From Parvibaculaceae bacterium (GTDB lineage: Bacteria; Pseudomonadota; Alphaproteobacteria; RS24; CBDDDD01), in contig OZ245362.1 of the NCBI GenBank assembly GCA_965226465.1, positions 112,232 through 176,231 of the forward strand: a DNA stretch of 64,000 nt. Reading direction: 5' to 3'. The translations under genes and the position numbers were made by a program. Position 1 is the first letter of the stretch. Each line of letters opens with the position of its first letter. The notes under the pieces were generated by a model that saw nothing but the letters and a program-made list of their open reading frames with translations, did no database searches and was not told where the DNA came from. Below, piece by piece: positions 7,501 to 26,692 of the stretch.

Positions 7501-8329
7501 AGGGTTTTTCTTGGCATTGGTGTTTTTTGTTGCGGCTCCTGTTTATGCGGCTTTTGAGCCTGAGCAGGGGGGGTATCGTTTGGTGTGGAGTGATGAGTTT
7601 GATTGTAAAAGCCGTCCTGACCCGAAAAATTGGGACTATGAGAAGGGGTTTGTCCGAAATCATGAGTTGCAGTATTATCAGGAGGATAATGCTTCTTGTA
7701 AGGATGGGAAGCTTGTCATTGAGGGGAAGCGGGATAAAATTAAAAATCCGAGCTATCGGCGGAATAGTAAAAATTGGAAAGAGCAGAGGCGGTTTTCTGA
7801 ATATAGCTCCGCTTCTATTAATACTAAGGATAAGCATTATTGGAAATATGGGCGCTTTATTGTCCGTGCAAAGGTGACCGACTTGGCGGGGCTTTGGCCT
7901 GCGATTTGGTTTCTTGGCAAGGAGGGCGAGTGGCCAGCACGGGGGGAGATTGATTTGATGGAGTATTTTCAGAATAAAATTCATGCCAATGTCGCCTCCG
8001 GCACGAAAAAAAGATGGACACCGAAATGGGACGCCAATGCCAGACGCATCGCCTCGTTTCATGACCCTAGCTTTGACAAAAAATTTCATATTTGGCGCAT
8101 GGATTGGGACGAGCAATCCATAAAGCTATATATGGATGATATTTTGCTCAATGAAACCCTGCTTAAAGACACCGTTAATCCTGATGGTGTTTTTCCTCGT
8201 CATCCGTTTCACCAGCCCCATTATATTTTGCTGAACTTTGCCATTGGGGGCAAGGCGGGCGGTGACCCTTCACAAACACCTTTTCCACAATATTATGAGG
8301 TTGATTATGTTCGGATTTATCAAAAATAA
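7490..8329 (+). CDS. glycoside hydrolase family 16
   Basis: Catalytic E-x-D-x-x-E motif (GEIDLMEY). Signal peptide MGYRGFFLALVFFVAAPVYA. I place the start at ATG 7490, overlapping the upstream sulfatase stop; the track start at 7385 would lie inside that gene. Confidence 0.8.
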   Translation: MGYRGFFLALVFFVAAPVYAAFEPEQGGYRLVWSDEFDCKSRPDPKNWDYEKGFVRNHELQYYQEDNASCKDGKLVIEGKRDKIKNPSYRRNSKNWKEQRRFSEYSSASINTKDKHYWKYGRFIVRAKVTDLAGLWPAIWFLGKEGEWPARGEIDLMEYFQNKIHANVASGTKKRWTPKWDANARRIASFHDPSFDKKFHIWRMDWDEQSIKLYMDDILLNETLLKDTVNPDGVFPRHPFHQPHYILLNFAIGGKAGGDPSQTPFPQYYEVDYVRIYQK

Positions 8330-11300
8330 GGCTGCTTTTTTGGTGGTTTTTCTGCTTTTGGGGGGCGGGGTTCAGGCGGCGGCTGATTGGGAAAACCCTG
8401 AGATTATCGGGGTGAATAAGGAGCCTGCTCATGCGCATATTGAGCCTTTTGCGGATGGGGGGCGTGCATTGGAGCGGGGAAGCTCGGAGCGTATGCAGTC
8501 GCTGAATGGGAAGTGGCGGTTTCATTGGGTGGGGAAGCCTGCTGAGCGTCCTGTCCATTTTTATAAGACCAGCTATGATGTTAGCGATTGGGCGGAAATT
8601 GATGTGCCGGGCAATTGGCAGACGCAGGGGTTTGGCACGCCTATTTATACGAATATTACCTATCCTTTTTTGAGGGAAGAGCCTTATGTGACGAAGGAGC
8701 CGCCTGCTCTTTATACGGCGTATACGGATAGAAATCCTGTTGGGTCGTATAAGAAGCGGTTTATGGTGGAGCCTGCTTTGCGGGGGAAGGAGGTTTTTCT
8801 TAAATTTGAGGGGGTGAAGTCGGCTTTTTATCTTTGGGTGAATGGGGAGAAGGTTGGGTATAGTCAGGGGTCTATGACTCCTGCGGAGTTTCATATTACG
8901 GAGTTTTTGAAAGCGGGGGAAAATGAGATTGCGGTGGAGGTTTATCGCTGGTCGGATGGGAGCTATTTGGAAGACCAGGATATGTGGCGGTTGAGCGGGA
9001 TTTTTCGCGATGTCAATCTGATTGCGCGCCCGAAAAGTTATATTGAGGATTATCAGATTGCGACCACACTGCTTAACAATTATCGCAATGCGAAGCTGGC
9101 GGTGGCGGTGAAGCTTAGGAATTTGGGGGGCGGGGAGGTGAAGAGGCGGCTTATTCTTTCCTTGTTTTCGCCGGAGGGGAAGGTTTTGAAAAAAACGACG
9201 GCGAGTATTGCGCTTGCTCCGAAAAGCAGGGGTGAGGCTATGCTGAAGCTGTCGCTTAGAAATGTGAAGCTGTGGTCGGCGGAAAACCCGCATCTTTATC
9301 CGTTGCTTATTACGCTTGCTGATGAGAATAAAAAGCCGCTGGAGCATATTGCTTGGCGGCATGGAATGCGTGAGATTAAAATTGAGGATAGGCGGCTTTT
9401 TGTCAATGGGCAGTCCATAAAGATTAAGGGGATTAACCGCCATGAACATCACCCGCGCATGGGGCGGCATGTGGATGTGGAGACGATGCGGCTTGATTTG
9501 AAATTGCTGAAGCAGGGTAATTTTAATCTGGTGCGGCTCAGCCATTATCCTAATGACCCGAAATGGTATGCGCTGGCGGATGAATATGGGATGTATCTGA
9601 TGGATGAAGCCAATCAGGAATCGCATGATTATCGGCGCACGCCGAAAGTTTTGGGCGATGCGCCGAAATGGCGAAAGGCTCATATTGACCGGGCGGTTTC
9701 TATGGTGCAACGGGCTAAAAATCATGCCTCCATTATTTTTTGGTCGCTGGGGAATGAGGGGGCGAAGGGGAAAAACTTTCATGCTATGAGGCGGGCGGTG
9801 CTTGCTATTGACGGCTCGCGTCCGATTTTTTCTGATACGGATCAGAGCGCATCCGATATGGTGGATGGGAACTATCCGAGCATAAAGAGCTTGGCGGGGT
9901 ATTTTAAGGAGGCGGAAGAGGCGGGAATGCCGCTTTTTATGCGGGAATATGCCCATGCTATGGGGAATAGTCTGGGCAATTTTAAGGAGCATTGGGACGC
10001 TATTTATGGCAATCCTCATCATCTGGGGGGGGCGATATGGGATTGGGTTGACCAGGGGCTGGCGCGGGTGAAAAATACGGCGATGGTTAGCTATGGGGAT
10101 AATCCGACAAGGCTTTCCTTAGACCATGAGCGGGAAGTTTGGGCGTATGGGGGGGATTTTAATGATTTTCCTAATGATGGGGAGTTTTTGTTGAACGGGG
10201 TTGTCTCGCCTGATAGGAAGCCTTATCCGTCTTATTTTGAAGCCAAGAAGATTATGCAGAATATTCGCTTTGAGGAGGGGGGGGCGCCTAATCAGATTAT
10301 GGTTACCAATCTTTTTGATTTTACTAATCTGAGCCGTTTTACTCTGAAATGGAAGCTGTTGCAGGAGGGGAAAATAGTAGAGGAGGGAAGCTTGCCGCTT
10401 GCGCTTGCGCCCAAGCAGAGCATTGGGGTTCGGGTGCCATATAGCCTTTCGCGGGTGAGCGAGGGGCGGGAGGCTCAGCTGGTTTTATCGGCGCATTTGC
10501 GCGAAGACACAAAATGGGCGGATAGGGGATATGAGATTGCTAATGCCGAATTTTTGGTGCGTCCTTTTTCTTATGCGGGTGCGGTTGAGGCTGGTGGCAA
10601 GAAGCTCCGTGTAAAGAGGGAAGACGGCTCTATCATTATTCATGGGGGGAAGTTTAGTTTTGTCTTTGATGCGGAAGGGGGGGTTTTGCGGCAAGTCATG
10701 GAGGGGAAGCGGGAGCTACTTGCACAACCGCTTGAGCCTTATTTTTGGAAGCCTGCGAATAATAATCAGACGCGTAATAAATATGGCGAGCGGTTTATTC
10801 GCTGGCTGGAGGCGGGTGCGCTGAGAAAGGTGCGGAAGGTGAGCCTTATTGAGCATGCACCGAACCTTGTGGAGATTGTCGCTTTCATGACACTGCCCGT
10901 TAATGATGCCGATTATGTGCTTCGCTATCGGGTGAATGGTAAGGGGGAGATTGCGGTGGCGGCGGAATATAAGCCGCAAGGGGGTGGGGTGAAATATATG
11001 CCGAAATTTGGCATGCGGCTTGCGCTGAACCCTTCGCTTTCGGATATAAAATGGTATGGCAGGGGTCCGTTTGAGAACTATCCTGATAGGAAGCATGCGG
11101 CACTTATTGGGGAATATGAAAGTTCGCTTTCTGGGTTTCAGGTGCCTTATATTTCTGCTCAGGATAGTACCAATCGGTCTGATGTGCGGTGGTTTTCTTT
11201 TGGTGACCGTAAGAATACAATTACAATTATTGGGGCACAGCCGCTTAATTTTCGTGCGTGGTCCTATCTGGAAAAAGATATTATTTCGCCGCCTAATATG

Positions 11301-11510
11301 ATGAGGAGGGCGAAACAAAAACGAGATATTGGGGCGGCGTGGCGCAAGCATTATTATGATTTGCCCAAGCGCGCACTTATTAATGTCAATATTGACCTCG
11401 CTATTCATGGGGTGGGGGGTGATAATAGTTGGGGGGCGCGCACCATGTTGAAATATCATGTGCCTGCCGATAAACCGCTCCATTATGGCTTTACGATGCG
11501 CTTTGAATAA
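8307..11510 (+). CDS. glycoside hydrolase family 2 beta-galactosidase (LacZ-like), exported
   Basis: [31 protein letters not shown] and GGAIWDWVDQ strings matching LacZ catalytic regions. Signal peptide MFGFIKNKAAFLVVFLLLGGGVQA, with gagg located 6 nt upstream of ATG 8307. Confidence 0.85.
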   Translation: MFGFIKNKAAFLVVFLLLGGGVQAAADWENPEIIGVNKEPAHAHIEPFADGGRALERGSSERMQSLNGKWRFHWVGKPAERPVHFYKTSYDVSDWAEIDVPGNWQTQGFGTPIYTNITYPFLREEPYVTKEPPALYTAYTDRNPVGSYKKRFMVEPALRGKEVFLKFEGVKSAFYLWVNGEKVGYSQGSMTPAEFHITEFLKAGENEIAVEVYRWSDGSYLEDQDMWRLSGIFRDVNLIARPKSYIEDYQIATTLLNNYRNAKLAVAVKLRNLGGGEVKRRLILSLFSPEGKVLKKTTASIALAPKSRGEAMLKLSLRNVKLWSAENPHLYPLLITLADENKKPLEHIAWRHGMREIKIEDRRLFVNGQSIKIKGINRHEHHPRMGRHVDVETMRLDLKLLKQGNFNLVRLSHYPNDPKWYALADEYGMYLMDEANQESHDYRRTPKVLGDAPKWRKAHIDRAVSMVQRAKNHASIIFWSLGNEGAKGKNFHAMRRAVLAIDGSRPIFSDTDQSASDMVDGNYPSIKSLAGYFKEAEEAGMPLFMREYAHAMGNSLGNFKEHWDAIYGNPHHLGGAIWDWVDQGLARVKNTAMVSYGDNPTRLSLDHEREVWAYGGDFNDFPNDGEFLLNGVVSPDRKPYPSYFEAKKIMQNIRFEEGGAPNQIMVTNLFDFTNLSRFTLKWKLLQEGKIVEEGSLPLALAPKQSIGVRVPYSLSRVSEGREAQLVLSAHLREDTKWADRGYEIANAEFLVRPFSYAGAVEAGGKKLRVKREDGSIIIHGGKFSFVFDAEGGVLRQVMEGKRELLAQPLEPYFWKPANNNQTRNKYGERFIRWLEAGALRKVRKVSLIEHAPNLVEIVAFMTLPVNDADYVLRYRVNGKGEIAVAAEYKPQGGGVKYMPKFGMRLALNPSLSDIKWYGRGPFENYPDRKHAALIGEYESSLSGFQVPYISAQDSTNRSDVRWFSFGDRKNTITIIGAQPLNFRAWSYLEKDIISPPNMMRRAKQKRDIGAAWRKHYYDLPKRALINVNIDLAIHGVGGDNSWGARTMLKYHVPADKPLHYGFTMRFE

Positions 11511-11556
11511 GGGCTTGCGGTGGGGGGGGAAAGGTATAAAATAGGGGGTCTGTTGA

Positions 11557-14712
<3,156 letters not shown>

Positions 14713-14713
14713 C

Positions 14714-16120
14714 ATGAAAACCATTATTCATATTTTGCTTGTCGGGGTCATTGCTCTTTTTGCGGTGTCTGAGGTGCAAGCCAAGCGCAAAAAGCCTAAT
14801 CTTGTCCTTATACTGACGGATGACCAAGGCTATGCCGATGTTGGGTTTAATGGTAGCACCGAGATTAAGACGCCTAATATTGACCGTATTGCTTATGAGG
14901 GGGTGCGCTTTGATAGCGGATATGTGTCTTTTCCTGTCTGTGGTCCAAGTCGGGCGGGGCTTTTGACGGGGAGATATCAGGATAGGTTTGGCTTTATTCT
15001 GAACCCAAGCCCTGACCCTAAGGATAAAAAGGGGGGGCTTCCTAAGAGTGAGAAAAATATCGCTGAGGTGCTGAAGCCTGCGGGATATCGGAGCGCAATT
15101 TTGGGGAAATGGCATATGGGCTCGCACCCTATTTTTCATCCCAATCGGCGGGGCTTTGATTATTTCTTTGGGTTTCTGACCGGTGGGCATAAATATTTTC
15201 CTCATGCGCTGAAATATAATTCTGTGGAGGAGACGCTGCAAAAATGGGATTGGTATTCAACCAGAATCCTCAGAAATAATAAGCGGATTGATATTGACGA
15301 ATATCTTACCGATGAGATTTCCAATGAGGCGGTCGCCTTCATTAAGAGGGAAAAGAAAAAGCCCTTTTTTCTTTATGTCGCCTATAACGCTCCGCATGGA
15401 CCTTTGCAGGCAACGGAGAAATATCTCAAGCGATATAGCCATATTAAAAATAAGAAGCGGCGCACCTATGCCGCTATGGTGAGCGCCGTTGATGATGGGG
15501 TCGGGCGCATACTGGATGTGCTGGAAGAGGAGGGGCTGGATGAGGATACGATTGTGGTTTTCCTGTCTGATAATGGCGGTCCTGTTAAGAAAAATGCGTC
15601 CAATAATGGGGTATTGCGGGAGGGGAAAAGTAGCCCCTTTGAGGGTGGTATCAGAGTGCCTTTTGCGATGCGCTGGAAGGGGGTTATTCCAGCCGGCATG
15701 GATTATAAAGAGCCTGTTATTTCGCTGGATATTCTTGCTACCATTGTCGGGGAGGCTAAGGTCAGTATGCGGAGGAATAAAAAGCTGGATGGGGTCAATC
15801 TTGTTCCCTATTTGACGGGCAAGAAGAAAGGCTCGCCCCATGATATTTTATTTTGGAGGGGGTGGCGCAAGCAATTTAGCGTCGCCAGAATGGGGGAGGA
15901 TAAGATTGTCAATGTGAAGAAAAAACCCATGCTCTATAATTTGGAGGAGGATATTTCCGAAAAAAATGACCTCTATTGGCGGGATAAAAAAACCTATAAA
16001 GCCCTTAATGAAAAGCTGGATGAGTGGAAAAAGGACTTCTCGCCGCCTGCTTTTCAGGGGCTTTTGGGCTGGAAGGCTGAGAATAAAAAGAGGGGCAATA
16101 GGAATAAAGATAATGAGTAA
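14714..16120 (+). CDS. exported sulfatase (arylsulfatase family)
   Basis: Signal peptide, LILTDDQGYADVG, active site CGPSRAGLLTGRY, GKWHMG, FLSDNGG. ATG 14714 lies 2 nt after the upstream stop. The track start at 14525 is an overlap artefact. Confidence 0.85.
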   Translation: MKTIIHILLVGVIALFAVSEVQAKRKKPNLVLILTDDQGYADVGFNGSTEIKTPNIDRIAYEGVRFDSGYVSFPVCGPSRAGLLTGRYQDRFGFILNPSPDPKDKKGGLPKSEKNIAEVLKPAGYRSAILGKWHMGSHPIFHPNRRGFDYFFGFLTGGHKYFPHALKYNSVEETLQKWDWYSTRILRNNKRIDIDEYLTDEISNEAVAFIKREKKKPFFLYVAYNAPHGPLQATEKYLKRYSHIKNKKRRTYAAMVSAVDDGVGRILDVLEEEGLDEDTIVVFLSDNGGPVKKNASNNGVLREGKSSPFEGGIRVPFAMRWKGVIPAGMDYKEPVISLDILATIVGEAKVSMRRNKKLDGVNLVPYLTGKKKGSPHDILFWRGWRKQFSVARMGEDKIVNVKKKPMLYNLEEDISEKNDLYWRDKKTYKALNEKLDEWKKDFSPPAFQGLLGWKAENKKRGNRNKDNE

Positions 16121-16187
16121 AAGAGGTGTTCGCTTGACGGCAAAGGATTATCGGGTTAGCTTTATGAATAGAACTTCTGGGGGGAAA

Positions 16188-17594
16188 ATGAAATTTTTTA
16201 TCCATATTTTGCTTGTCGGGGCAATTGCCCTTTTTGCGGTGTCTGATGCTTCTGCCAAGCGCAAAAAGCCTAATCTTATTCTTATACTGACCGATGACCA
16301 AGGCTATGCCGATGTCGGGTTTAATGGCAGCACGGAGATTAAAACGCCCAATATTGACCGTATCGCTTATGAGGGGGCACGTTTTGATAGCGGATATGTG
16401 TCTTTTCCTGTCTGTGGTCCGAGCCGTGCGGGGCTTTTGACGGGGAGATATCAGGATAGGTTTGGCTTTATTCTGAACCCTTCTATTAATCCTGCTGACA
16501 AAGCGGGGCTTCCCAAAAGTGAGAAAAATATTGCTGAGGTGCTGAAGCCTGCGGGATATCGCACGGCTATTCTTGGGAAATGGCATATGGGGACGCATCC
16601 TGTTTTTCATCCTAATCGTCGGGGCTTTGATTATTTTTGGGGTTTTCTTTCGGGCGGGCATAGATATTTTCCCCATGAGCTGACATTGAACTCTCTTGAT
16701 GAGGTGGAAAGAGCTTGGCAATGGTATAGCACGCGAATCTTGCGAAATAATAAGCGGATTGATATTGACGAATATCTGACTGATGAGATTTCCAATGAGG
16801 CGGTCGCTTTCATTAAGAGGGAAAAGAAAAAGCCCTTCTTTCTTTATGTCGCCTATAATGCGCCCCATGCGCCTTTGCAGGCTACGGAGAAATATCTCAA
16901 GCGATTTAGTCATGTTGAGAATAAGAGGCGCAGAACCTATCTCGCTATGGTGAGTGCGGTTGATGATGGGGTCGGGCGCATTTTGGACACGTTGGAAGAG
17001 GAGGGGCTGGATGAGGATACGATTGTGGTTTTCCTTTCCGATAATGGCGGGGCGTTGAAGAAAAATGCTTCCGATAATGGCATATTGCGGGACGGCAAGG
17101 GTAGTCCCTTTGAGGGCGGTATCAGGGTGCCTTTTGCGATGCGCTGGAAGGGGGTTATTCCCGCTGGCTTGGATTATAAGCCTGCCGTTATTTCGCTTGA
17201 TATTCTTGCTACCATTGTCGGTGAGGCTAAGGTCAGTATGCGGAGGAATAAGAAGCTGGATGGGGTCAATCTCATTCCCTATCTGACGGGGAAGAAAAGG
17301 GGCGAGCCTCATGATATTTTATTCTGGCGGGGCTGGAATAGGAAATATACCGTTGCTAGGGCGGGGGGGGATAAGATTATTACCGCCAAGAAAACGCCTA
17401 TGCTTTATAATTTGGAGGAGGATATTTCCGAAAAAAATAATCTCTATCGGAAGAATAAAAAGCGTTATGAAAGCCTCAATGCAAAAGTGGAGGAGTGGAA
17501 AGAGGATTTCTCGCCGCCTATTTTTACCGGTCTTGGGGAATGGACGGGCAATAATAATAATAAAAAAAATAACAAGAAAAAGAAAAGGAGATGA
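16188..17594 (+). CDS. exported sulfatase, tandem paralogue of 14714-16120
   Basis: Most positions are identical by eye to the preceding sulfatase, with the same motifs. C-terminal tail NNNNKKNNKKKKRR. Start at ATG 16188 with ggggggaaa upstream. Confidence 0.85.
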   Translation: MKFFIHILLVGAIALFAVSDASAKRKKPNLILILTDDQGYADVGFNGSTEIKTPNIDRIAYEGARFDSGYVSFPVCGPSRAGLLTGRYQDRFGFILNPSINPADKAGLPKSEKNIAEVLKPAGYRTAILGKWHMGTHPVFHPNRRGFDYFWGFLSGGHRYFPHELTLNSLDEVERAWQWYSTRILRNNKRIDIDEYLTDEISNEAVAFIKREKKKPFFLYVAYNAPHAPLQATEKYLKRFSHVENKRRRTYLAMVSAVDDGVGRILDTLEEEGLDEDTIVVFLSDNGGALKKNASDNGILRDGKGSPFEGGIRVPFAMRWKGVIPAGLDYKPAVISLDILATIVGEAKVSMRRNKKLDGVNLIPYLTGKKRGEPHDILFWRGWNRKYTVARAGGDKIITAKKTPMLYNLEEDISEKNNLYRKNKKRYESLNAKVEEWKEDFSPPIFTGLGEWTGNNNNKKNNKKKKRR

Positions 17595-19144
17595 GTATGA
17601 TGCCGTTTGTTTTCAGAACTCTCGCTATTGCTCTCCTCTTGCCGTTGGTTTTTGCTTGCAAGGAGGAGGGCAAACCCATGCATGGCATGGGTAAGAAGCC
17701 CAATGTGGTTATTTTTTATATTGATGATTTGGGTTATGGTGACCTCGGCTCTTATGGTGCAAAGGGGGTTAAAACGCCCGAAATTGACCGCATTGCTAAG
17801 AAGGGTGTGCGCTTTACGGACGCTCATAGCTCGGCGGCTACCTGCACGCCAAGCCGATATTCCTTATTGACCGGCGAGCATGGCTTTCGTAGCAAAGCGG
17901 CTATTCTGCCGGGTGATGCGCCCGCTCTTATCCGTCCGGGCAAGCCGACATTGGCAACGCTTTTCAAAAAGGCGGGCTATCAAACTGCCGTCGTCGGCAA
18001 ATGGCATTTGGGGCTGGGCAATGGCAATGTCAATTGGAATAAGAAAGTCGCACCCGGTCCCTTGGAGATAGGGTTTGATTATAGTTTTCTGCTTCCTGCT
18101 ACGGGGGATAGGGTGCCGACGGTTTATCTGGATGGTCACCATGTGGTGAGCCTTGATAGGAAAGATCCGATTAAGGTTAGTTATCGGGGTAAGGTGGGCA
18201 AGCGTCCTACCGGTTTGGAGCGTCCTGACCTGCTGCGGGTCAAGGCGGATAAGCAACATAGTCAGACGATTATTAATGGTGTCAGTCGCATTGGCACGAT
18301 GGGTGGCGGTGAGAGTGCGCTGTGGGTGGATGAGGATTTCCCCGATATTTTTACCGAAAAAGCCGTGCAGTTTATGCGTGAAAATAAGGATAAGCCTTTT
18401 TTCCTTTTTCATTCCTATCATGATATTCATGTGCCGCGCTTGCCCCATCCGCGCTTTGAGGGGAAGTCCCGCATGGGTCCAAGGGGGGATGCGATTGTGC
18501 AGATGGATTGGATGACCGGTCAGATTATTCGTGAGCTGGAAAAGCTTGGGATTGCGGATAATACGCTTATTATTTTTACGAGCGATAATGGTCCTGTGCT
18601 GAATGATGGCTATGAGGATGAGGCGGTGGAGAAGCTTGGGAAGCATAAGCCTTGGGGTCCGTTTCGGGGGGGGAAATATAGTGCTTATGAGGCGGGAACC
18701 AGGGTGCCGACGATTGTGTATTGGCCCGGAACCATAAAGCCCAAAACCAGCAAGGTGCTGTTTTCGCAGATTGATATTTATGCATCGCTCGCCAAGCTTA
18801 TCGGCATTGAGCTTGAGGATGGCGAGGCGATGGATAGCATGGAGGTGCTGGATGTTATGCTCGGCAAAAAAGGGCGCGAGCGCAGGGAGCTTTTGGAGGA
18901 ATCGGTTGCGACCAATGCGCTCAGAGACGGCAAGTGGAAGTTTATTCCGATAACGCCTTCCAAGCGTAATCATGAGTTTCTGAAAAGGAAAAATATTGAG
19001 GGCGGCTTTAAGCCCTATCCGCAATTATATAATCTGGATAAGGATATTGGCGAGCGCAATAATCTCGCCGAGCAACACCCTGAGCGTGTTAAAGCTATGG
19101 CGGCGCGCATTAAGGATATTGTTAAAAATGGCTACTCCCGCTAG
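17591..19144 (+). CDS. sulfatase, probable lipoprotein
   Basis: Lipobox LVFAC. IFYIDDLGYGDLG, active site CTPSRYSLLTG, GKWHLG, FTSDNGP. ATGA overlap with the upstream stop. Confidence 0.85.
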   Translation: MSMMPFVFRTLAIALLLPLVFACKEEGKPMHGMGKKPNVVIFYIDDLGYGDLGSYGAKGVKTPEIDRIAKKGVRFTDAHSSAATCTPSRYSLLTGEHGFRSKAAILPGDAPALIRPGKPTLATLFKKAGYQTAVVGKWHLGLGNGNVNWNKKVAPGPLEIGFDYSFLLPATGDRVPTVYLDGHHVVSLDRKDPIKVSYRGKVGKRPTGLERPDLLRVKADKQHSQTIINGVSRIGTMGGGESALWVDEDFPDIFTEKAVQFMRENKDKPFFLFHSYHDIHVPRLPHPRFEGKSRMGPRGDAIVQMDWMTGQIIRELEKLGIADNTLIIFTSDNGPVLNDGYEDEAVEKLGKHKPWGPFRGGKYSAYEAGTRVPTIVYWPGTIKPKTSKVLFSQIDIYASLAKLIGIELEDGEAMDSMEVLDVMLGKKGRERRELLEESVATNALRDGKWKFIPITPSKRNHEFLKRKNIEGGFKPYPQLYNLDKDIGERNNLAEQHPERVKAMAARIKDIVKNGYSR

Positions 19145-19389
19145 TGGGTGGGGGTGGATTTTTTATTTGGTAAAATGGAATCCTTTAAGCGGTCTTCAAA
19201 GAGTTTGGTCATTTCATGTAATACTTTTTCATAAATATCATCCCAAAAATTGGAAACAAAGCTATCCTTGCCTCTGTTCGCTTTATAGGTAAAAACCATA
19301 AGGGGAACCATACCAGTTTTGATAAACTCCGAAGCGAGCCAGTCTTTAAGTTCTTTATTGGTAAGCATTTTTTTCATTTCATCTGTCAT
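19141..19389 (-). CDS. hypothetical small protein (82 aa)
   Basis: ATG at 19389 is preceded by aggaga with 5-nt spacing. AT-rich. Its stop overlaps the sulfatase stop (CTAG). The upstream part of track ORF 19141-19866 runs through structured and repeat DNA and is not credible. Confidence 0.45.
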   Translation of the reverse strand: MTDEMKKMLTNKELKDWLASEFIKTGMVPLMVFTYKANRGKDSFVSNFWDDIYEKVLHEMTKLFEDRLKDSILPNKKSTPTH

Positions 19390-19394
19390 TTCAT

Positions 19395-19640
19395 TCTCCT
19401 GTGTTGTTTTTAACGAAACGACACCAATGTCAAAACATTGGTGTCGGGGCGTTAAGAAGCCAGACAAAAGAATGGCTGCGGTGCTTTTACCGCAGGCGGC
19501 TATTTTATAACACCGCCACCCCAACTCTTGTTGAAGTGGCTTGTTTTGGGTGGTGCCATACCACCACTTTTGTCTGGGGTTCTTAAACCCCGAAACTGGA
19601 ATACCCAGTTCTGCCAATAATCTAGCACATAAGAAAATGA
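19395..19640 (-). ncRNA. candidate structured 5' leader / cis-regulatory RNA upstream of the 82-aa ORF
   Basis: An 11-bp long-range pairing (19460-19470 ccagacaaaag / 19567-19577 cttttgtctgg) encloses three local hairpins. Two further hairpins lie at 19576-19612. An 11-bp perfect hairpin at 19419-19446 is followed on the minus strand by tttcgtt, then the RBS. No known riboswitch consensus recognised. Confidence 0.3.
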
Positions 19641-19706
19641 AAATACAAAAAGAAAAAGCGGTGGCTTCATTTATAGCGCCCGCCTTTGGCGGGCTTCCCC
19701 GCCCAC

Positions 19707-19878
19707 ACCCCCCTAACCCCCCTTCGCTCGGAACACTTCGTGTTCCTGCGCGCAAAAAGCTAGACCCCAGCAAAGCTGGGGAGCTTTTTTCACCCTTTTT
19801 TAATAGGCATGTAATGCCTATTAAAAAATAGGGGGGGATAAGGAGTGCGCCCTGAGGGGGGCGCATTTTTTATTTTTT
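19707..19878. repeat. mosaic multi-hairpin intergenic repeat, copy B (full)
   Basis: Near-identical to copy A over about 170 nt. The few substitutions fall mostly in loops or spacers (cctgacc/cctaacc, cactttgtg/cacttcgtg). Confidence 0.85.
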
Positions 19879-20232
19879 GCGGAGGAGGTGGGGGAGGGTT
19901 AGGGCGTCTTTTAGCCAGAATAGGCGGATAGCTAAGAAGGGGAGGGCTATGGTGATGCCGAGGATTGTGGTGCCTAGGGGGGTGAAGGGGTTGACGGTGC
20001 CGCCGGTGTAGAGGATGAAGCCCATTATGGCTAGGAGCTCGGGGGCGAGGAGTAGTAGTAGGAGGTAGTAGGGGTGGAGTCCGGGCATGATGCCTAGTTG
20101 GAGGCATAGGAGGGTGAAGGTGGCGGTGAAGTATAGGAGGGCGCCTTTTTTGTCGCCGGTGTAGAGGCGGTGGGCGCCGAAGCGGCCTAGAAATAGCCAG
20201 AGGAGATAGGCGGTTATTGTTCGTTTTATCAT
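19870..20232 (-). CDS. TM2-domain membrane protein
   Basis: AYLLWLFLGRFGAHRLYTGD matches the TM2 signature, and several TM helices follow. The start is uncertain: ATG 20232 gives the usual short N-terminus, while the track start at 20331 adds a P-rich extension. Confidence 0.65.
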   Translation of the reverse strand: MIKRTITAYLLWLFLGRFGAHRLYTGDKKGALLYFTATFTLLCLQLGIMPGLHPYYLLLLLLAPELLAIMGFILYTGGTVNPFTPLGTTILGITIALPFLAIRLFWLKDALTLPHLLRKK

Positions 20233-20282
20233 GGGGGTATTTTGCGCCTTTTTGGGGGGGGTTGGCAAGGGGGGGATAGGGC

Positions 20283-20310
20283 TTGACATTGGGGAGTTTC
20301 CGTTTATAAA
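20283..20310 (+). promoter_or_regulatory. candidate sigma70 promoter for the 23S-5S-tRNA unit
   Basis: TTGACA (20283-20288), 16-nt spacer, TATAAA (20305-20310). About 360 nt upstream of the mature 23S 5' end. Confidence 0.35.
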
Positions 20311-20649
20311 AGCCCAACACAATCCTTCCATCTTCGCTTATCGTGCAAAATGTGAAAGGGTGTGGGTTGCGTGAAATTTGGCAAAATATGCTGAAAACCG
20401 CGTAACATGCTGTTTGATATTGTGAAGAAGAGTGATATGCCTGGACTTCTTGTCCGCATGTAAGCCTATCAACTTATGTGCATATATTTATATATACCTA
20501 TATTTATATATAAAAGACTTGTAATGGGTGCCTGTTCCAAATAGGTGCCGAGCAAACCCACGCTTTTTGGGTATATCCAATTAAGGTCATCCGCTTATGT
20601 GAGAATAAGCGGATAATAATCGTAATCATTGCATCATTTCTATCCAAGA

Positions 20650-20670
20650 AATGGGCGGTGATAATGAGAA
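20650..20670 (+). other. 23S leader half of the precursor processing stem
   Basis: aatgggcggtgataatgagaa is complementary at 19 of 21 positions to the trailer at 24096-24116. Confidence 0.6.
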
Positions 20671-21096
20671 TAATCAAGCGTTTAAGAGCATTTGGTGAAT
20701 GCCTTGGCGTTGAGAGGCGATGAAGGACGTGGCACGCTGCGATAAGCTACGGGGAGTTGTGAGCAAACTCTGATCCGTAGATTTCCGAATGGGGAAACCC
20801 AGCCCTTCGGGGCTATCTTCTGCTGAATTAATAGGCAGAAGAGGCAAACCCGGGAAACTGAAACATCTAAGTACCCGGAGGAAAGGACATCAACCGAGAC
20901 TCCGTTAGTAGTGGCGAGCGAACGCGGACCAGGCCAATGCCTGTTATTTTGTAACCAGAAGGAGCTGGGAAGCTCCGCCAGAGTCGGTAATAGCCCGGTA
21001 TGGGTATGCAAAATAATAGGATCCGAGTAAGGCGGGACACGTGAAATCCTGTCTGAATATGGGGGGACCACCCTCCAAGCCTAAGTACTCCTCAAC

Positions 21097-21142
<46 letters not shown>

Positions 21143-21700
21143 AATGAGGGGAGTGAAATAGTCCCTGAAACCGAATGCTTACAATCAGTTGGAGCCTCTT
21201 TTGAGGTGACAGCGTACCTTTTGTATAATGGGTCAGCGACTTAGTCCGGCGTGCGAGCTTAAACCGTTAGGTGTAGGCGTAGCGAAAGCGAGTCTGAACA
21301 GGGCAACCTAGTTCGTCGGATTAGACCCGAAGCCGAGTGATCTAGCCATGGCCAGGTTGAAGGTGCAGTAACATGCACTGGAGGACCGAACCCACCTATG
21401 TTGAAAAATGGGGGGATGAGCTGTGGCTAGGGGTGAAAGGCCAATCAAACTCGGATATAGCTGGTTCTCCGCGAAAACTATTTAGGTAGTGCGTCGCGTG
21501 AATACTCTCGGGGGTAGAGCACTGGATGGGCTAGGGGGCTTCACCGCTTACCAAACCTAACCAAACTCCGAATACCGAGAAGTAATGCGTGGCAGACACA
21601 CTATGGGTGCTAAGGTCCATAGTGGAAAGGGAAACAGCCCGGACCGTCGTCTAAGGTCCCTAAGTTATGGCTAAGTGGGAAAGGATGTAGGGGTTCCAAA

Positions 21701-21749
<49 letters not shown>

Positions 21750-21825
21750 CAGCTCACTGGTCTAATTAAGAACCCCCGCGCCGAAGATATATCGGGGCTA
21801 AAGCCATACACCGAAGACACGGGTG

Positions 21826-22519
21826 CTTGAGATCGTTTACTATAGTTAGTAAAGTAAAAAATAAAATGTGGGAAAACCTTATTCCTTCCCTTGCATTATT
21901 TCTGCCTTTTCCATAAGGTCAAAGCAGAATAAGCAAGAGAAGGGGAGCAATACGCTCATGGGTTCAGAAAAAGAAAAAAATACTGAGAGCGCAATCAAAA
22001 AGAGATTGCAGTCTATTGCCAAAACACTTCAGGAAAATAATTTTGAAGTGAAATTTGGGCAAGGAAGTGAAGGCAATCGCCTTTATCTCAAAAGTGTATT
22101 TCGTAAAAATATCTCTTCTGACTCCTTTAGCTGGCGTTTTGATAATTTTGATGTCTGGATAACAGAAACAGATGATGGGAAGGATATGCTCATTTGCAGA
22201 TTTAAGCATGATGTGGATAGTCCAGCCTGTTTTAAAGAATATGAAACGCTTAAAGAAAAAATAAGCGAGCGGATAATGAGGGATATAAAAGCAGAAACAG
22301 GAATTAAAGTTTGCTTTGAGAAGAGAACAGGATATCAAGCAGTGTCTTTTGATGATATTGCGAAGATGGTTTTTCTGCTGATAGTTGGAGGAATGCTAAT
22401 CATATCTTTTGATGGATTTTACAGTAATCTTTTAGGAGGTTTTCTTGTTTTCATAAGCTTCATGTTTTTTCTTACCTACGCCATAAGTTATATCAAAAAC
22501 TATAGTAATCGGTCTCAAG
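21826..22519 (+). other. 23S rRNA intervening sequence (IVS), helix 45 site
   Basis: Conserved 23S sequence stops at ...ccgaagacacgggtg and resumes at cgcggtagcggagcgttccgtaagcc. The 694-nt AT-rich insert is bounded by the 22-nt inverted repeat 21826-21847 / 22498-22519 (one G.U pair and one mismatch). Confidence 0.8.
21891..21919 (+). promoter_or_regulatory. candidate internal sigma70 promoter inside the IVS
   Basis: TTGCAT, 17-nt spacer, TAAGGT. About 40 nt upstream of the IVS ORF start. Confidence 0.25.
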
Positions 22520-22527
22520 CGCGGTAG
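21958..22527 (+). CDS. hypothetical membrane-anchored protein encoded within the 23S IVS (189 aa)
   Basis: ATG 21958 is preceded by aggggag (21941-21947). The product has a soluble N-terminal region of about 140 aa, then two hydrophobic helices (MVFLLIVGGMLIISF, LLGGFLVFISFMFFLTYAISYI). The alternative GTG at 21868 seems less likely. Translation is unproven. Confidence 0.4.
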   Translation: MGSEKEKNTESAIKKRLQSIAKTLQENNFEVKFGQGSEGNRLYLKSVFRKNISSDSFSWRFDNFDVWITETDDGKDMLICRFKHDVDSPACFKEYETLKEKISERIMRDIKAETGIKVCFEKRTGYQAVSFDDIAKMVFLLIVGGMLIISFDGFYSNLLGGFLVFISFMFFLTYAISYIKNYSNRSQAR

Positions 22528-22686
22528 CGGAGCGTTCCGTAAGCCAGTGAAGGCGATTTGTAAGAATTGCTGGAGGTATCGGAAGTGAGAATGCTGACAT
22601 GAGTAACGATAAGGAGGGTGAAAAACCCTCCCGCCGAAAGTCCAAGGGTTCCTGCCCAATGTTAATCAGGGCAGGGTTAGTCGGCA

Positions 22687-22722
<36 letters not shown>

Positions 22723-23080
22723 GAGGTTAATATTCCTCAACCTGTGGGTAGTGACAGATCGCAGAAGTAGTTTTCCCTTATCGGATTGAGAAGGCTGCCA
22801 CGTGGTCTCAGGAAATAGCTCCCACATTTAAGACCGTACCCTAAACCGACACAGGTGGACAGGTAGAGAATACCAAGGCGCTTGAGAGAACGATGCTGAA
22901 GGAACTCGGCAAAATACCTCCGTAACTTCGGGAGAAGGAGGCCCTATAGGGAGGCAACTCTCTATGGGGGGCACAGACCAGGGGGTAGCGACTGTTTATT
23001 AAAAACACAGGGCTCTGCGAAGTCGCAAGACGACGTATAGGGTCTGACGCCTGCCCGGTGCCGGAAGGTTAAGACGCGGA

Positions 23081-23187
<107 letters not shown>

Positions 23188-23446
23188 CGACTTCCCCACT
23201 GTCTCCAGCATCGACTCAGTGAAATTGAATTCCCCGTGAAGATGCGGGGTTCCTGCGGTTAGACGGAAAGACCCCGTGCACCTTTACTACAGCTTTGCAG
23301 TGGCGTTAGTGACGACATGTGTAGGATAGGTGGTAGGCTTTGAAGCCAGGGCGCAAGCCCAGGTGGAGCCGCAATGTGAAATACCACCCTTATCTTTATT
23401 GACGTCTAACCGCGGCCCGTTATCCGGGTCCGGAACCCTGCATGGT

Positions 23447-23493
<47 letters not shown>

Positions 23494-23615
23494 GCAATGG
23501 TAGGCTCAGGCTGGTCGGAAATCAGCCGTCGAGTGCAATGGCATAAGCCTGCCTGACTGCGAGAGTGACAGCTCGAGCAGAGACGAAAGTCGGTCATAGT
23601 GATCCGGTGGTCCCA

Positions 23616-23670
<55 letters not shown>

Positions 23671-23945
23671 GACCCCCAAGAGTCCATATCGACGGGGTTG
23701 TTTGGCACCTCGATGTCGGCTCATCTCATCCTGGGGCTGAAGCAGGTCCCAAGGGTTTGGCTGTTCGCCAATTAAAGAGGTACGTGAGCTGGGTTTAGAA
23801 CGTCGTGAGACAGTTTGGTCCCTATCTGCCGTGGGTGTTGGAAAGTTGAGAGGAGTTGTCCCTAGTACGAGAGGACCGGGATGAACATATCTCTGGTGGA
23901 GCTGTTGTCGCGCCAGCGGCATTGCAGCATAGCTATATATGGAAA

Positions 23946-23979
<34 letters not shown>

Positions 23980-24095
23980 CCCTCGAAACAAACTATCCCT
24001 GAAGAGCCGTGGTAGACTACCACGTTGATAGGCCGGGTGTGGAAGCGCAGCAATGCGTGGAGCTTACCGGTACTAATTGCTCGTTCGGCTTGGTT

Positions 24096-24116
24096 TTCTC
24101 ATTTTCTCCGCCCATT
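24096..24116 (+). other. 23S trailer half of the precursor processing stem
   Basis: ttctcattttctccgcccatt pairs with the leader at 20650-20670. Confidence 0.6.
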
Positions 24117-24174
24117 GCGGGGTGCGCCCTTGTGGTGCGCTCCCAATGTGCGGGGCGCGATTTTGTCTTATATT

Positions 24175-24292
24175 GGTCTGGTGATTATAGCGAGGAGCTC
24201 ACACCCGATCCCTTTCCGAACTCGGAAGTTAATCTCCTCCGCGCCGATGGTACTGCATCTTAAGGTGTGGCAGAGTAGGTCGTTGCCAGGCC
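24175..24292 (+). rRNA. rrf: 5S ribosomal RNA
   Basis: ccgaactcggaagttaa...gcgccgatggtact...agagtaggtc strings, with terminal helix ggtctggtg / tgccaggcc. Confidence 0.9.
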
Positions 24293-24399
24293 TATATAAG
24301 ACAAAACTTGTGCGTATGCCTGCCGTGAGCAGGCGCGCGCTTGGCTCTATGATTGGACACACTCTTCTTCTCAATAACATACATGCCTACTCGGATTTG

Positions 24400-24478
<79 letters not shown>

Positions 24479-24556: not shown

Positions 24557-26692
24557 ATGGTAGGCATATATGAAAAATTTTGTAAGACCAAAGACTATAA
24601 TCAAGCCACAAAGGATTGTATTGAGAATACAGTTCGGGAAATTAAAAAAACTGATACGACTGCACAAAAGCCAGGAATGTTGCTCGGTAAAATCCAGAGT
24701 GGGAAAACTCGTACATTTATAGGCGTGACGGCTTTGGCTTTTGATAAGGGCTATGACTTTGCAGTTGTGCTCACCAAAGCTACGAATGCACTAACAAAAC
24801 AAACCTATGAGCGTTTGTGCCAAGAGTTTGAAGAATTCGTTGAGGATGATGAAATCGGAATCTATGATATCATGAATACGCCTGACGAATTAACGCCTTA
24901 TATACGAGGGAAAAAGTTAATCTTCATCGTTAAAAAAGAGACACATAATCTTGATCGACTTGTTAAGTTGTTCGAGAAATATGAAGACTTTAGAACAAAA
25001 CAAGTGCTGATTATTGATGATGAAGCTGACTATGCCAGCATTGGTTTCAAGAGAGATGGAAAACAGATTGACGATGTATCCATCAATACAATCGCTAATA
25101 AGATTAATAGACTGCGCGATTATGGCGCAACGACAAGCTTCTTGCAAGTTACCGCTACGCCTTACAGTCTGTATCTTCAGCCAGACGATATACATTTGAA
25201 CGGCGAAGAATACCACCCTGTCCGCCCGGCGTTCACAGAGCTGGTGCCTATTTATAAAGGATATATCGGCGGTGAGTTTTACTTTGAGGAAAGCGAAAAC
25301 CCTGATTCACCCGCTTATTACCTGCATGTGGACGTGCCAGAGAAAGAATTAGAAGTTCTAGGAAAGCGCGACATGCGGTATCTCAGCAACATACTTGATA
25401 CACCAAATCTAGAAGTGTTTCGCTTCGCGATTTTAAATTTCCTTGTAGGTGGAAGCATTCGGTGGCTACAAGAACAACCCAGAAAGTATAAATGTAGTTG
25501 CATTATTCATATTGAAGTAGCCCAGAAAAAACACACTTGGCAATATAAGCTTGTTGAAACTCTACTTGAAGAGTTGAAGGCTGGCATTGAGAAAGAGCCT
25601 GATGCTCTGGAGAGATTGGTTCGTGATAGCTATAATAATCTTAAGCTATCCATTAAAGATGACCAACTTCCTACGTTTAAGGATGTTTTTACTTTTGTAA
25701 AGAAAGCCATTGGGGATGGCTATGTAGGCATTAGTAAAATTAATTCTGAAGGACAGGTGCAAACGCTACTTGACCGTAAAGGGCAGTTGCGGCTGGATAA
25801 TCCATTTAATATCTTCATAGGGGGGCAGATTCTGGATAGGGGCATTACAATTGAGAATCTCATTTGTTTTTTTTATGGAAGAAACCCTAAAAAGTTTCAG
25901 CAGGACACCGTTCTTCAACATTCTAGAATGTATGGTGCACGCTCAAAGCAGGATATTTCCGTAACACGTTTCTACACCTCTTCCCGAATTTATGATGCCA
26001 TGAAAAAAATGCATCAATTTGATACCGCACTACGCGAAGCCTTTGAGAAGGGGCAGCATAAAGATGGTGTGGTTTTTCTGGAGAAAGATACTTCTGGTAG
26101 CGTCAAAATATGCGCCCCTAACAAAATCCTAATCTCCTCAACCGAAACAATTCGACCATATCGTCGCCTGCTTCCTCGTGGTATGCAGACAGTTTCAGCT
26201 ACGAAGATGACATCTATCGCTTCGCAAATTGAACAGCTTCTAGAAAAGTATAAATTTTATGACGACAGTGCAATTTTGATTGATTGTGATGATGCAGTAA
26301 AGATGCTGGACTTAATCTATGAAAGTTATGAGTTCTCACATCGATTTAAAAATTTGTACTGCAAATGGGATATAGATTCGTATAAAGCCATTATTCACAG
26401 GCTTTGTGTTAGTCATTGTAACTCAGATAAAGAAAGAAAAATATATTGCTTCATTCGGCGCAACAGGAATATCAGTCGGTTCAAGGAAGGCTATGCATTC
26501 ACTGATGCGCCAGATGATGGTCGAACAGATATTCCGTTGGCGAAGAAACATGCTCAAGACCTGCCTGTTCTTCAGTTATTTCATCAGAATGGGAAAAAAA
26601 AGAATGGTTGGCGGGATGTGCCATTTTGGTGGCCTGTTCTGATTTGTCCTAAAAAAACCAAAACATTAGTTTTTACAGCAGAGACTCTATGA
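24557..26692 (+). CDS. SF2-type ATPase with Z1-like C-terminal domain (restriction/defence-associated family)
   Basis: Walker A GKIQSGKT, Walker B LIIDDEADYAS, VTATP, DRGITIENL and QHSRMYGAR motifs, and a C-terminal GWRDVPFWWPVL string as in Z1-domain proteins. AT-rich. RBS ggggag lies 8 nt upstream. Confidence 0.55.
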   Translation: MVGIYEKFCKTKDYNQATKDCIENTVREIKKTDTTAQKPGMLLGKIQSGKTRTFIGVTALAFDKGYDFAVVLTKATNALTKQTYERLCQEFEEFVEDDEIGIYDIMNTPDELTPYIRGKKLIFIVKKETHNLDRLVKLFEKYEDFRTKQVLIIDDEADYASIGFKRDGKQIDDVSINTIANKINRLRDYGATTSFLQVTATPYSLYLQPDDIHLNGEEYHPVRPAFTELVPIYKGYIGGEFYFEESENPDSPAYYLHVDVPEKELEVLGKRDMRYLSNILDTPNLEVFRFAILNFLVGGSIRWLQEQPRKYKCSCIIHIEVAQKKHTWQYKLVETLLEELKAGIEKEPDALERLVRDSYNNLKLSIKDDQLPTFKDVFTFVKKAIGDGYVGISKINSEGQVQTLLDRKGQLRLDNPFNIFIGGQILDRGITIENLICFFYGRNPKKFQQDTVLQHSRMYGARSKQDISVTRFYTSSRIYDAMKKMHQFDTALREAFEKGQHKDGVVFLEKDTSGSVKICAPNKILISSTETIRPYRRLLPRGMQTVSATKMTSIASQIEQLLEKYKFYDDSAILIDCDDAVKMLDLIYESYEFSHRFKNLYCKWDIDSYKAIIHRLCVSHCNSDKERKIYCFIRRNRNISRFKEGYAFTDAPDDGRTDIPLAKKHAQDLPVLQLFHQNGKKKNGWRDVPFWWPVLICPKKTKTLVFTAETL

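Follow-up and report, generated by a model that had tools for sequence, protein, structure and literature searches.

The window examined here, a 64,000-nucleotide (nt) stretch from a Parvibaculaceae bacterium (GCA_965226465.1, OZ245362.1:112,232-176,231, forward strand), carries on its minus strand, flanked by sulfatase genes on one side and a 23S rRNA gene on the other, a highly structured leader followed by an orphan open reading frame (ORF) of 82 codons (19141-19389; all coordinates are window positions). From the sequence alone, the leader had originally been predicted to be a transcription-attenuating riboswitch, built from an aptamer-like multi-way junction closed by an 11-base-pair (bp) helix, a terminator-like hairpin and a ribosome-binding site (RBS). 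The elements listed in that prediction, from the candidate promoter and the hairpins to the 11-bp helix, the RBS and the ATG, are all present on the minus strand where they had been placed, and the broader idea of a structured regulatory leader tied to the downstream ORF, with a junction and mutually exclusive pairings, is supported. The nature of the junction is revised here: the unit is probably an antisense device, in which a C4-like RNA, equipped with a self-mask, address loops and a target over the Shine-Dalgarno (SD) sequence, controls the 82-amino-acid (aa) ORF.

The 266-nt stretch that holds the leader folds at -115.2 kcal/mol, compared with -68.1 +/- 4.8 kcal/mol for dinucleotide shuffles (z = -9.8), and none of 200 shuffles equals it. 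Transcription may start from a weak candidate promoter, TTGTAT (19648-19643) and TAGATT (19624-19619) separated by an 18-nt spacer, whose hexamers match the consensus at three and four of six positions, respectively. A scan for consensus promoters did not report this pair, and its assignment at 19619-19648 is suggested by its position, which is equivalent to that of the promoters in related units of a Parvibaculaceae metagenome-assembled genome (MAG; see “Multi-copy relatives in a Parvibaculaceae genome”). Downstream of it, fold prediction places three leader hairpins. H0 (GAACUGG/CCAGUU(U), 19593-19611) has a positional counterpart in the MAG homologues, H1 (GGGGU/ACCCC, 19576-19591) presents site a1 in its loop, and H2 (GGUGGU AUGGC ACCACC, 19549-19565) is replaced in the MAG copies by a hairpin of other sequence. 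Site a1 (UUAAGAA, 19586-19580) forms 7 bp with the a' segment of the junction RNA (UUCUUAA) and co-varies with it in the MAG copies, while site b1 (CCAGACAAAAG, 19567-19577), lying between H1 and H2, forms 11 Watson-Crick bp with the b' segment CUUUUGUCUGG (19470-19460).

The leader then runs into a three-way-junction RNA (19443-19525), which is supported by a sub-threshold Rfam match, by our own covariance model R2 and by covariation, and which is of the sRNA-Xcc1 type and C4-like in layout. Its closing stem P1 (GUUGGGGUG/CGCCCCGAC, 19525-19517 with 19451-19443) is that of the family model, and P2 (GCGGUG/CACCGC, 19516-19511 with 19483-19478) is conserved in relatives, both with covariation. 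The first hairpin of the junction further contains the conserved internal loop AUAAAAUA (19508-19501) and a 4-bp stem with a CCUG cap, P2b (19500-19497 with 19492-19489). The second hairpin, P3 (19477-19473 with 19462-19458), displays b' as its loop. The two variable address segments are b' (CAUUCUUUUGUCUGG, 19460-19474), which comprises the P3 loop and 3' arm and can partner b1 or b2, and a' (UUCUUAAC, 19451-19458), the strand between P3 and the 3' strand of the closing stem (P1'), which can partner a1 or a2.

Beyond P1', the tail reads ACCA (19442-19439), and a 12-bp hairpin, P4 (19419-19446), whose base overlaps the last four nt of P1', is followed by UUUCGUU. Site a2 (CGUUAAAAA, 19407-19415) comes next; its CGUUAA can pair over 6 bp with UUAACG, formed by a' and the start of P1'. 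Site b2 (ACAGGAGAAUG, 19392-19402) can form 11 bp, two of them G-U, with CAUUCUUUUGU of b', and such a duplex would cover the SD sequence (AGGAG, 19400-19396) and the spacer up to the ATG at 19389. A repeat search recovered the b1:b' helix independently, within a 30-nt imperfect inverted repeat, and extended the P4 hairpin to 24 nt, which places a' opposite a2.

Two further observations concern the sequence around these elements. A 21-nt imperfect complementarity (76%) joins 19627-19647, a far-upstream U-rich stretch that overlaps the candidate promoter, to the SD and start region at 19384-19404 on the minus strand; this pairing is also part of the 266-nt fold and would be relevant only if transcription started farther upstream than assumed. 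In addition, the spacer between the TM2 gene and the RNA unit (19650-19870) is dense in hairpins, with a perfect 15-nt palindrome (19796-19810/19814-19828, CCCCAGC..GCUGGGG) and a GC-rich hairpin (19691-19673), and none of it is repeated elsewhere within the 1.6 kb examined.

A divergent member of the sRNA-Xcc1 family

An Rfam scan and a search for covarying homologues had been proposed with the original prediction as ways to check it, and both were carried out. At gathering thresholds, Rfam returned solely 23S rRNA, 5S rRNA and one tRNA from the 64-kb window. Rescanning 19100-20700 (1.6 kb) with E-value reporting (E <= 10) brought up sRNA-Xcc1 (RF02221) at 19525-19435 on the minus strand, with 43.7 bits over model positions 1-87 of 87 (E = 5e-6 in this region and 2e-4 across the full 64 kb, where it is the sole such hit).

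Relatives were collected from viral contigs, which were scanned with degenerate patterns and then passed through a filter for P1 pairing, leaving about 100 non-redundant members; the earliest degenerate scans had yielded mostly false positives before this filter. When re-checked, sampled seed loci among the viral members scored 65-86 bits on RF02221. Aligning mixed-length members with MAFFT and RNAalifold recovered 3 pairs only, and a hand-structured, gap-free seed with covariance-model realignment was used instead: model R1 was built from 11 gap-free sequences, and its 98 hits, all viral and without the window sequence, gave model R2. R2 matches the window over its full length at 19526-19442 (minus strand; 43.6 bits, E = 1.9e-7 over 226 kb) and has no other match within the window.

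The fold is conserved through compensatory changes. In the 98-member alignment, 97.1% of the cells of the consensus pairs are paired and 20 of 21 pairs show double-sided changes, values that none of 500 shuffles reaches, and slid controls stay at or below 54% of cells paired. For the subgroup to which the window belongs, the alignment has 93.2% of its cells paired, and both-sided changes occur in 14 of 21 pairs. The window sequence can form all four helices, P1, P2, P2b and P3. Within P2, the pairs G19513-C19481 and U19512-A19480 are A-U and C-G in the MAG copies. Also conserved is the internal loop AUA(C/A)AAUA followed by (C/G)CCG, positions that are invariant in the alignments and that read AUAAAAUAGCCG in the window (19508-19497). 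P2b has the form GCCG-NNNG-CGGU in both the window and the MAG subgroup.

These comparisons redraw the junction. The multi-way junction closed by the 11-bp helix is not the conserved fold, since covariation favors P1 as the closing stem, together with P2. Two of the inner hairpins of the older scheme, ggcgg..ccgcc and ctgcggt..accgcag, can form, are present in the minimum-free-energy fold and are 1.9 kcal/mol more stable in silico, but they are an alternative to the conserved P2 (19516-19511/19483-19478) and compete with it. Altogether, the window RNA is very probably a divergent, sub-threshold member of sRNA-Xcc1 with C4-like self-targeting.

Address logic across the family

The viral members show what the variable segments of such an RNA may be for. 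Behind the junction of every one of them come a short hairpin, a stretch of 20-30 nt, an SD sequence and a start codon; on visual inspection, complementarity links the P3 loop to the SD region, and the junction strand to a site just before it. We compared each of 96 non-redundant viral members against its own flanks and against the flanks of the other members, using contiguous-run and shuffle tests because the loop, being rich in U, pairs with any leader that is rich in purines. Watson-Crick runs of 7 nt or longer connect the P3 loop with the downstream leader of the same RNA in 57% of members, compared with 3.5% for non-native combinations, and with the upstream leader of the same RNA in 68%, compared with 4.0%. 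For the junction strand, runs of at least 6 nt occur with the own downstream flank in 61% (14.6% non-native) and with the own upstream flank in 33% (8.4% non-native). Between the end of the downstream target and the start codon the median distance is 9 nt, and the upstream sites follow in the order a1, b1, a median of 7 nt apart. Judged from these sequences, sRNA-Xcc1 members share the architecture of the C4 RNA of phage P1, with co-varying sites both upstream and downstream.

Most of the genes behind these leaders encode antirepressor-type proteins: 57 of 70 downstream products hit such a family (Bro-N 24, KilA-N 12, Rha 8, P22_AR_N 6, AntA 5 and ORF6N 2, as a sum of per-family counts). A CC dinucleotide lies within 4 nt after P1' in 90% of members, resembling a tRNA 3' end. 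The Rfam models c4-a1b1, isrK and C4 found no match beside the viral members checked. Viral-contig members often occur as two tandem copies (e.g., L167:823-1109, L282:1182-1508 and L293:7027-7350).

sRNA-Xcc1 is described in the literature as a trans-acting, virulence-linked small RNA (PMC2996969). The co-varying flanking sites and the antirepressor association are described neither in the portions consulted of the literature that names sRNA-Xcc1 nor in Rfam, which assigns RF02221 to no clan. The pairing of a1b1 and a2b2 with the address segments and the link to antirepressors are by-products of the analysis at the level of the whole family, with a bearing beyond the present locus.

The same evidence bears on the riboswitch from which the analysis started, that is, a ligand-sensing attenuator whose junction would bind a metabolite and whose P4 hairpin would terminate transcription to control the ORF. 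A pronounced secondary structure, the strong conservation of the internal loop AUAMAAUA and its adjacent CCG, a hairpin ahead of the RBS and the existence of mutually exclusive folds all fit such a device. The family to which the junction belongs, however, is not a riboswitch family: its members precede antirepressor genes and no metabolic regulon, their variable loops co-vary with flanking targets, which is antisense logic with no conserved ligand pocket, and no Rfam riboswitch model matches the rescanned region even at E <= 10. The proposed terminator fares no better. The hairpin at 19446-19419 and the UUUCGUU behind it are real, but a run of at least four T within 60 nt downstream of P1' is found in 20% of members only, so P4 is generally no terminator. 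We regard the riboswitch as very improbable, and the earlier call is replaced by a specific, testable antisense RNA with mapped address loops and targets.

Self-target and possible Shine-Dalgarno target in the window

In the window, the upstream self-target stands out. Against the 14-nt P3 loop segment, b1 offers a 10-bp Watson-Crick run that 0.1-0.2% of dinucleotide shuffles match or beat. When a'b' was ranked against 25,582 subwindows across the 64 kb, a1b1 was its best sense-strand partner, with the exception of the trivial reverse complement on the other strand. The helix of 19577-19567 with 19470-19460 that had been taken for the base of an aptamer is the antisense self-target pairing b1:b'. 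The segments b' and a' are a variable address that is complementary to b1 and a1 of the own leader in the window and in every related copy analysed.

The SD target is less distinct. Pairing of b2 with b' has a predicted energy of -12.4 kcal/mol, which 1.4% of dinucleotide shuffles equal, and 1.85% of them contain a run of at least 11 bp (p about 0.015); in the ranking across the whole window, its energy was -13.4 kcal/mol. The a2:a' match, of 6 bp only, is weak alone. The window's b2 also ends 2 nt before the start codon, compared with the family median of 9. On these grounds the upstream self-target a1b1 appears solid and the SD target b2 plausible but modest.

Computed energies of the 238-nt leader place the a1b1:a'b' state at the minimum (-100.9 kcal/mol), the state in which a'b' pairs with a2b2 and the SD is masked at -91.9 kcal/mol, and the junction state at -83.3 kcal/mol. 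Once a1b1 is removed, the minimum (-57.6 kcal/mol) consists of P1, P3 and the alternative P2, and the family junction lies at -55.7 kcal/mol. These values fit a model in which a1b1 would mask the address segments until the leader is removed.

We thus propose the following course of events. The promoter, the leader H0-H1-H2 with a1 and b1, the junction RNA of about 85 nt, P4, a2, b2 and the ORF would form one minus-strand transcription unit. In the primary transcript, a1b1 would mask a'b', the state predicted to be most stable. Cleavage at the 5' end of stem P1 would then free the junction RNA; the C4 RNA of phage P1 is reported to be excised from a longer transcript in this way, by RNase P at the stem's 5' end (PMC5320573, citing Hartmann 1995), and the ACCA tail in the window is a sequence hint in the same direction. 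In the freed RNA, the b' loop and the a' strand could pair with b2 and a2 and cover the SD sequence, upon which translation of the 82-aa protein would be repressed, either in cis or in trans.

Multi-copy relatives in a Parvibaculaceae genome

The nearest relatives of the window unit come from a genome scan that found at least 16 units in one 2.1-Mb Parvibaculaceae MAG (OZ240687.1), dispersed from 80 kb to 2.04 Mb. The host of the window is probably a relative of the MAG organism: its Dxs protein is 68% identical to that of the MAG, the neighboring genes are syntenic, and its 5S gene is followed by tRNA-Met(CAT). The cores of the MAG units are about 77% identical to that of the window, and the units have the same build, from the promoter through H0, H1 (whose loop contains a1), b1 and H2 to the junction RNA and P4. 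Fourteen of them have a TTGAC(A/T) hexamer, a spacer and a TATGAT/TATGGT-type hexamer just upstream of H0, a near-consensus promoter whose equivalent location gives positional support to the weak candidate in the window. Two metagenome scans for further members of the subgroup gave nothing or three false positives, and nucleotide similarity searches with the 266-nt leader found no plasmid match and only four short Vibrio phage matches near E = 1.

The address logic recurs in these copies. Among 11 analysed, nine different b' sequences occur, each with 9-11 Watson-Crick bp to its own b1, compared with a non-native mean of 5.6, and the a1:a' pairing co-varies as well. The comparison uncovers an alphaproteobacterial lineage in which such units have multiplied along a small chromosome, with a private address that matches its own leader in each. 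Examples of the MAG units lie at L372:3237-3543 and L405:5993-6607; many units have a second C4-like RNA, lacking P3, in tandem behind them, and L405 has four hits in 600 nt.

What lies downstream of the MAG units divides them into two classes, and both weigh in the assessment of how far the antisense reading extends to the ORF. Class A copies, which share the promoter, leader and RNA of the window unit and sit intergenically among housekeeping genes such as dnaK, grpE, fabB and pnp, have no downstream ORF, and the second C4-like RNA lacking P3 stands there instead. Class B copies precede an ORF for a small membrane protein (MHEYNFLADVLNKYHTSTDLVQAIWIISFTIIIVTLMIGLKNT...) that recalls type I toxins (loci L356:566-777 (-), L360 and L378), yet their downstream leader is constant while b' varies, and b2 does not covary. 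Several features of the window itself also count against the proposed unit. The RF02221 score of 43.7 bits is below the gathering threshold of 53; P2b is a CCUG on a 4-bp stem, compared with a GNRA tetraloop on a 3-bp stem in canonical members; the b2/SD pairing is modest, with G-U pairs in two of its 11 bp and an energy that, at about one standard deviation below the window-wide mean, is unexceptional; the duplex of a'b' with its own leader (-13.9 kcal/mol) does not separate from those with the leaders of other members (-13.4 +/- 3.9 kcal/mol); and without a1b1, the SD-masked state (-51.6 kcal/mol) is 6 kcal/mol less stable than the minimum. The orphan ORF could be spurious, despite a good SD sequence and a confident predicted fold. 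Lastly, the Rfam models for C4 (RF01695) and c4-a1b1 (RF03163) match phage P1 at 68.8 and 51 bits and find nothing at window positions 19100-20700 at E <= 10, and R2 gives no match to the c4 of phage P1, so the link to C4 is an architectural one.

Part of this evidence would suit a free-standing small RNA gene, encoding a trans-acting regulator like the sRNA-Xcc1 described in Xanthomonas or else a structured RNA complete in itself, whose a1b1:a'b' pairing serves only its own folding, maturation or autoregulation, whose targets, if it has any, lie elsewhere in the genome and next to which the ORF is unrelated or spurious. The class A and class B copies and the modest statistics of the b2 match point that way, P4 with UUUCGUU could terminate the transcript before the ORF, and both sRNA-Xcc1 and the C4-like small RNAs of Acinetobacter are treated as trans-acting in the sources consulted (PMC2996969, PMC12189769, PMC5320573). 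Against it, covariation across the 96 viral members ties the loop to the SD region of the gene that follows immediately, the 11-bp SD match of the window falls in the b2 region of the family with P4 bringing a2 into register, and T runs after P4 are rare in the family. We consider such a stand-alone RNA unlikely. Within the antisense unit that we favor instead, repression of the 82-aa ORF through b':b2 and a':a2 is a matter on which the sequence evidence leaves the scales about even.

The 82-aa protein and its surroundings

The 82-codon ORF, preceded by its AGGAG, encodes a predicted soluble protein of four helices. By position it would correspond to Icd/Ant of phage P1, to SymE of the Xanthomonas cassettes and to the antirepressors of prophages. 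Its sequence finds only itself in a word-indexed search and an exhaustive HMMER search (5.8 billion clusters, 1.84 billion representatives), Pfam gives no hit, PADLOC gives one at chance level (0.044), and no contig is recorded as encoding it. AlphaFold2 run on the single 82-aa sequence returned four helices with a predicted local distance difference test score (pLDDT) of 86 and a predicted template-modeling score (pTM) of 0.72, and this predicted fold has no match in the Protein Data Bank (PDB) with E < 1.

The RNA unit sits in a chromosomal region of enzymes and housekeeping functions, whose products include GH16, two GH2 enzymes, three sulfatases, a TM2 protein, the 23S and 5S rRNAs, tRNA-Met, a Z1 helicase, MutY, DciA, DsbA and SMC. 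A rival reading is that a mobile immunity or addiction module, such as an immI-like piece of a prophage or a small mobile cassette, became stranded between the sulfatase operon and the TM2 and rRNA genes and is now decaying, no longer under selection in this genome. Such an origin would account for an orphan ORF that is AT-rich relative to its flanks (GC 0.35-0.38, compared with about 0.5) and whose final codons extend into the terminator of the sulfatase gene that converges on it, for relatives that are multi-copy, dispersed and reminiscent of mobile repeats, and for the absence of phage or integron families among the 13 neighboring proteins scanned. Decay, however, is hard to reconcile with P1-P3, a1:a', b1:b' and P4 that are all intact, with an ORF that is open behind a strong SD sequence and confidently predicted to fold, and with the lack of terminal repeats or target duplications around 19141-19870; we hold it to be improbable.

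The end of a mobile element, named with the original prediction as an outcome that would overturn it, was considered separately and rejected: terminal inverted or direct repeats bounding 19141-19870 were not found.

Several neighbors are of interest in their own right. The sulfatases belong to a polysaccharide-degradation cluster on the plus strand (7385-19144), in which a GH16 gene is joined by two genes of the GH2 beta-galactosidase type and by three sulfatase paralogues in tandem. On the other side, a minus-strand gene for a TM2-domain protein (19870-20331) precedes by 340 nt the 23S rRNA gene (20672-24097, plus strand), which at 3426 nt exceeds the 2925-nt model. About 1.2 kb into this gene lies an AT-rich block of about 700 nt (21830-22540; GC 0.34-0.39, compared with about 0.52) that contains a 219-aa ORF (21868-22527) with a GTG start, a hydrophobic C-terminus and no significant Pfam or PADLOC hit; the block looks like an unusually long, ORF-bearing intervening sequence. 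The rRNA locus (19870-24477) has the order 23S, 5S, tRNA-Met(CAT); a 16S gene is missing, as are tRNA-Ile and tRNA-Ala ahead of 23S, and the rRNA genes appear unlinked. Directly after tRNA-Met, a plus-strand gene (24557-26692) encodes a protein with Z1 and ResIII/DEAD helicase domains, which may mark the edge of a defense island at the tRNA.

Implications

The MAG units extend to another group of bacteria the observation, made in Acinetobacter, of domesticated C4-like small RNAs, and they provide a natural set of orthogonal RNA address pairs. A wider scenario can be drawn from the same elements. It sees in the unit an addressable, RNA-controlled cassette that escaped from phage immunity regions into alphaproteobacterial chromosomes, where a private a'/b' address and the a1b1 self-mask render the RNA active only after processing and an orphan, possibly growth-inhibiting 82-aa protein is silenced, so that RNA and protein, transcribed together from one strand, would parallel a type I toxin-antitoxin or addiction module, and it sees in the whole sRNA-Xcc1 family a second, unrecognised lineage of C4-type immunity RNAs that governs antirepressors. 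Taken as a whole, this scenario is speculative, and we put it forward as a doubtful possibility.

Comparison with known systems

The closest architectural parallel is the C4 RNA of phages P1 and P7 (RF01695 and RF03163, clan CL00128). The annotated immI region of phage P1 has the order a1, b1, c4, a2, b2 over the icd RBS, and icd-ant; likewise, the window presents a candidate promoter, a1, b1, the RNA, a putative a2, a putative b2 at the RBS and a small ORF. Set beside the annotated phage P1 sequence and the Rfam consensus structure of C4, the window fold has the same topology: the closing stem is followed by one hairpin, by another whose loop is b', by the a' strand, and by the 3' arm of the stem with a CC-containing tail. 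In the window, too, the putative b2 overlaps the RBS, and the variable a' and b' segments would set specificity. In C4, b' is reported to occlude the RBS and a' to add specificity (PMC5320573, citing Citron & Schuster 1990 and Hartmann 1995). The differences are considerable: the window RNA has no detectable sequence-model similarity to C4, its first hairpin has the AUAMAAUA loop and a capped stem where C4 has a UUCG hairpin, an extra hairpin, P4, stands between the RNA and a2, and the downstream gene is an orphan instead of icd-ant, in a host chromosome that is alphaproteobacterial and in which no phage gene was found among the neighbors scanned.

Membership of C4 proper was rejected on the grounds that RF01695 and RF03163 miss the window and R2 misses the c4 of phage P1.

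With sRNA-Xcc1 (RF02221), an RNA of 88 nt seen on Northern blots (PMC2996969), the window shares the full-length match, the P1/P2/P3 junction, AUA(A/C)AAUA with (G/C)CCG and the CC-containing tail after P1'. So is the placement immediately ahead of a small gene in the same orientation, the RNA being reported upstream of symE in a Xanthomonas integron cassette (bioRxiv 10.1101/2025.06.18.660453). Unlike typical members, the window RNA scores below threshold, caps P2b with CCUG on a 4-bp stem and resides outside the family's known contexts of integron cassette, prophage or plasmid with symE or an antirepressor gene downstream.

The Group 1 C4-like small RNAs of Acinetobacter baumannii are, as far as described in PMC5320573, similar to the MAG units in having many chromosomal copies of a phage-derived, C4-type fold with conserved structure and variable a' and b', processed from longer transcripts. 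They differ in being RF01695-like rather than RF02221-like and in belonging to another host class, and the alphaproteobacterial units analysed are set apart by a co-varying a1b1 self-target of their own in each copy.

A last comparison is with type I toxin-antitoxin systems and SymE/SymR. The window RNA departs from these in lying upstream of the gene on the same strand and in its predicted co-transcription with it, instead of forming an overlapping antisense gene, and the 82-aa product departs from the toxins of type I systems in being predicted soluble and helical instead of a membrane peptide. What the systems would have in common is a small RNA that pairs, in the window by prediction, at the translation-initiation region of an adjacent gene for a small, possibly harmful protein, within modules that are horizontally mobile, multi-copy and fast-evolving.

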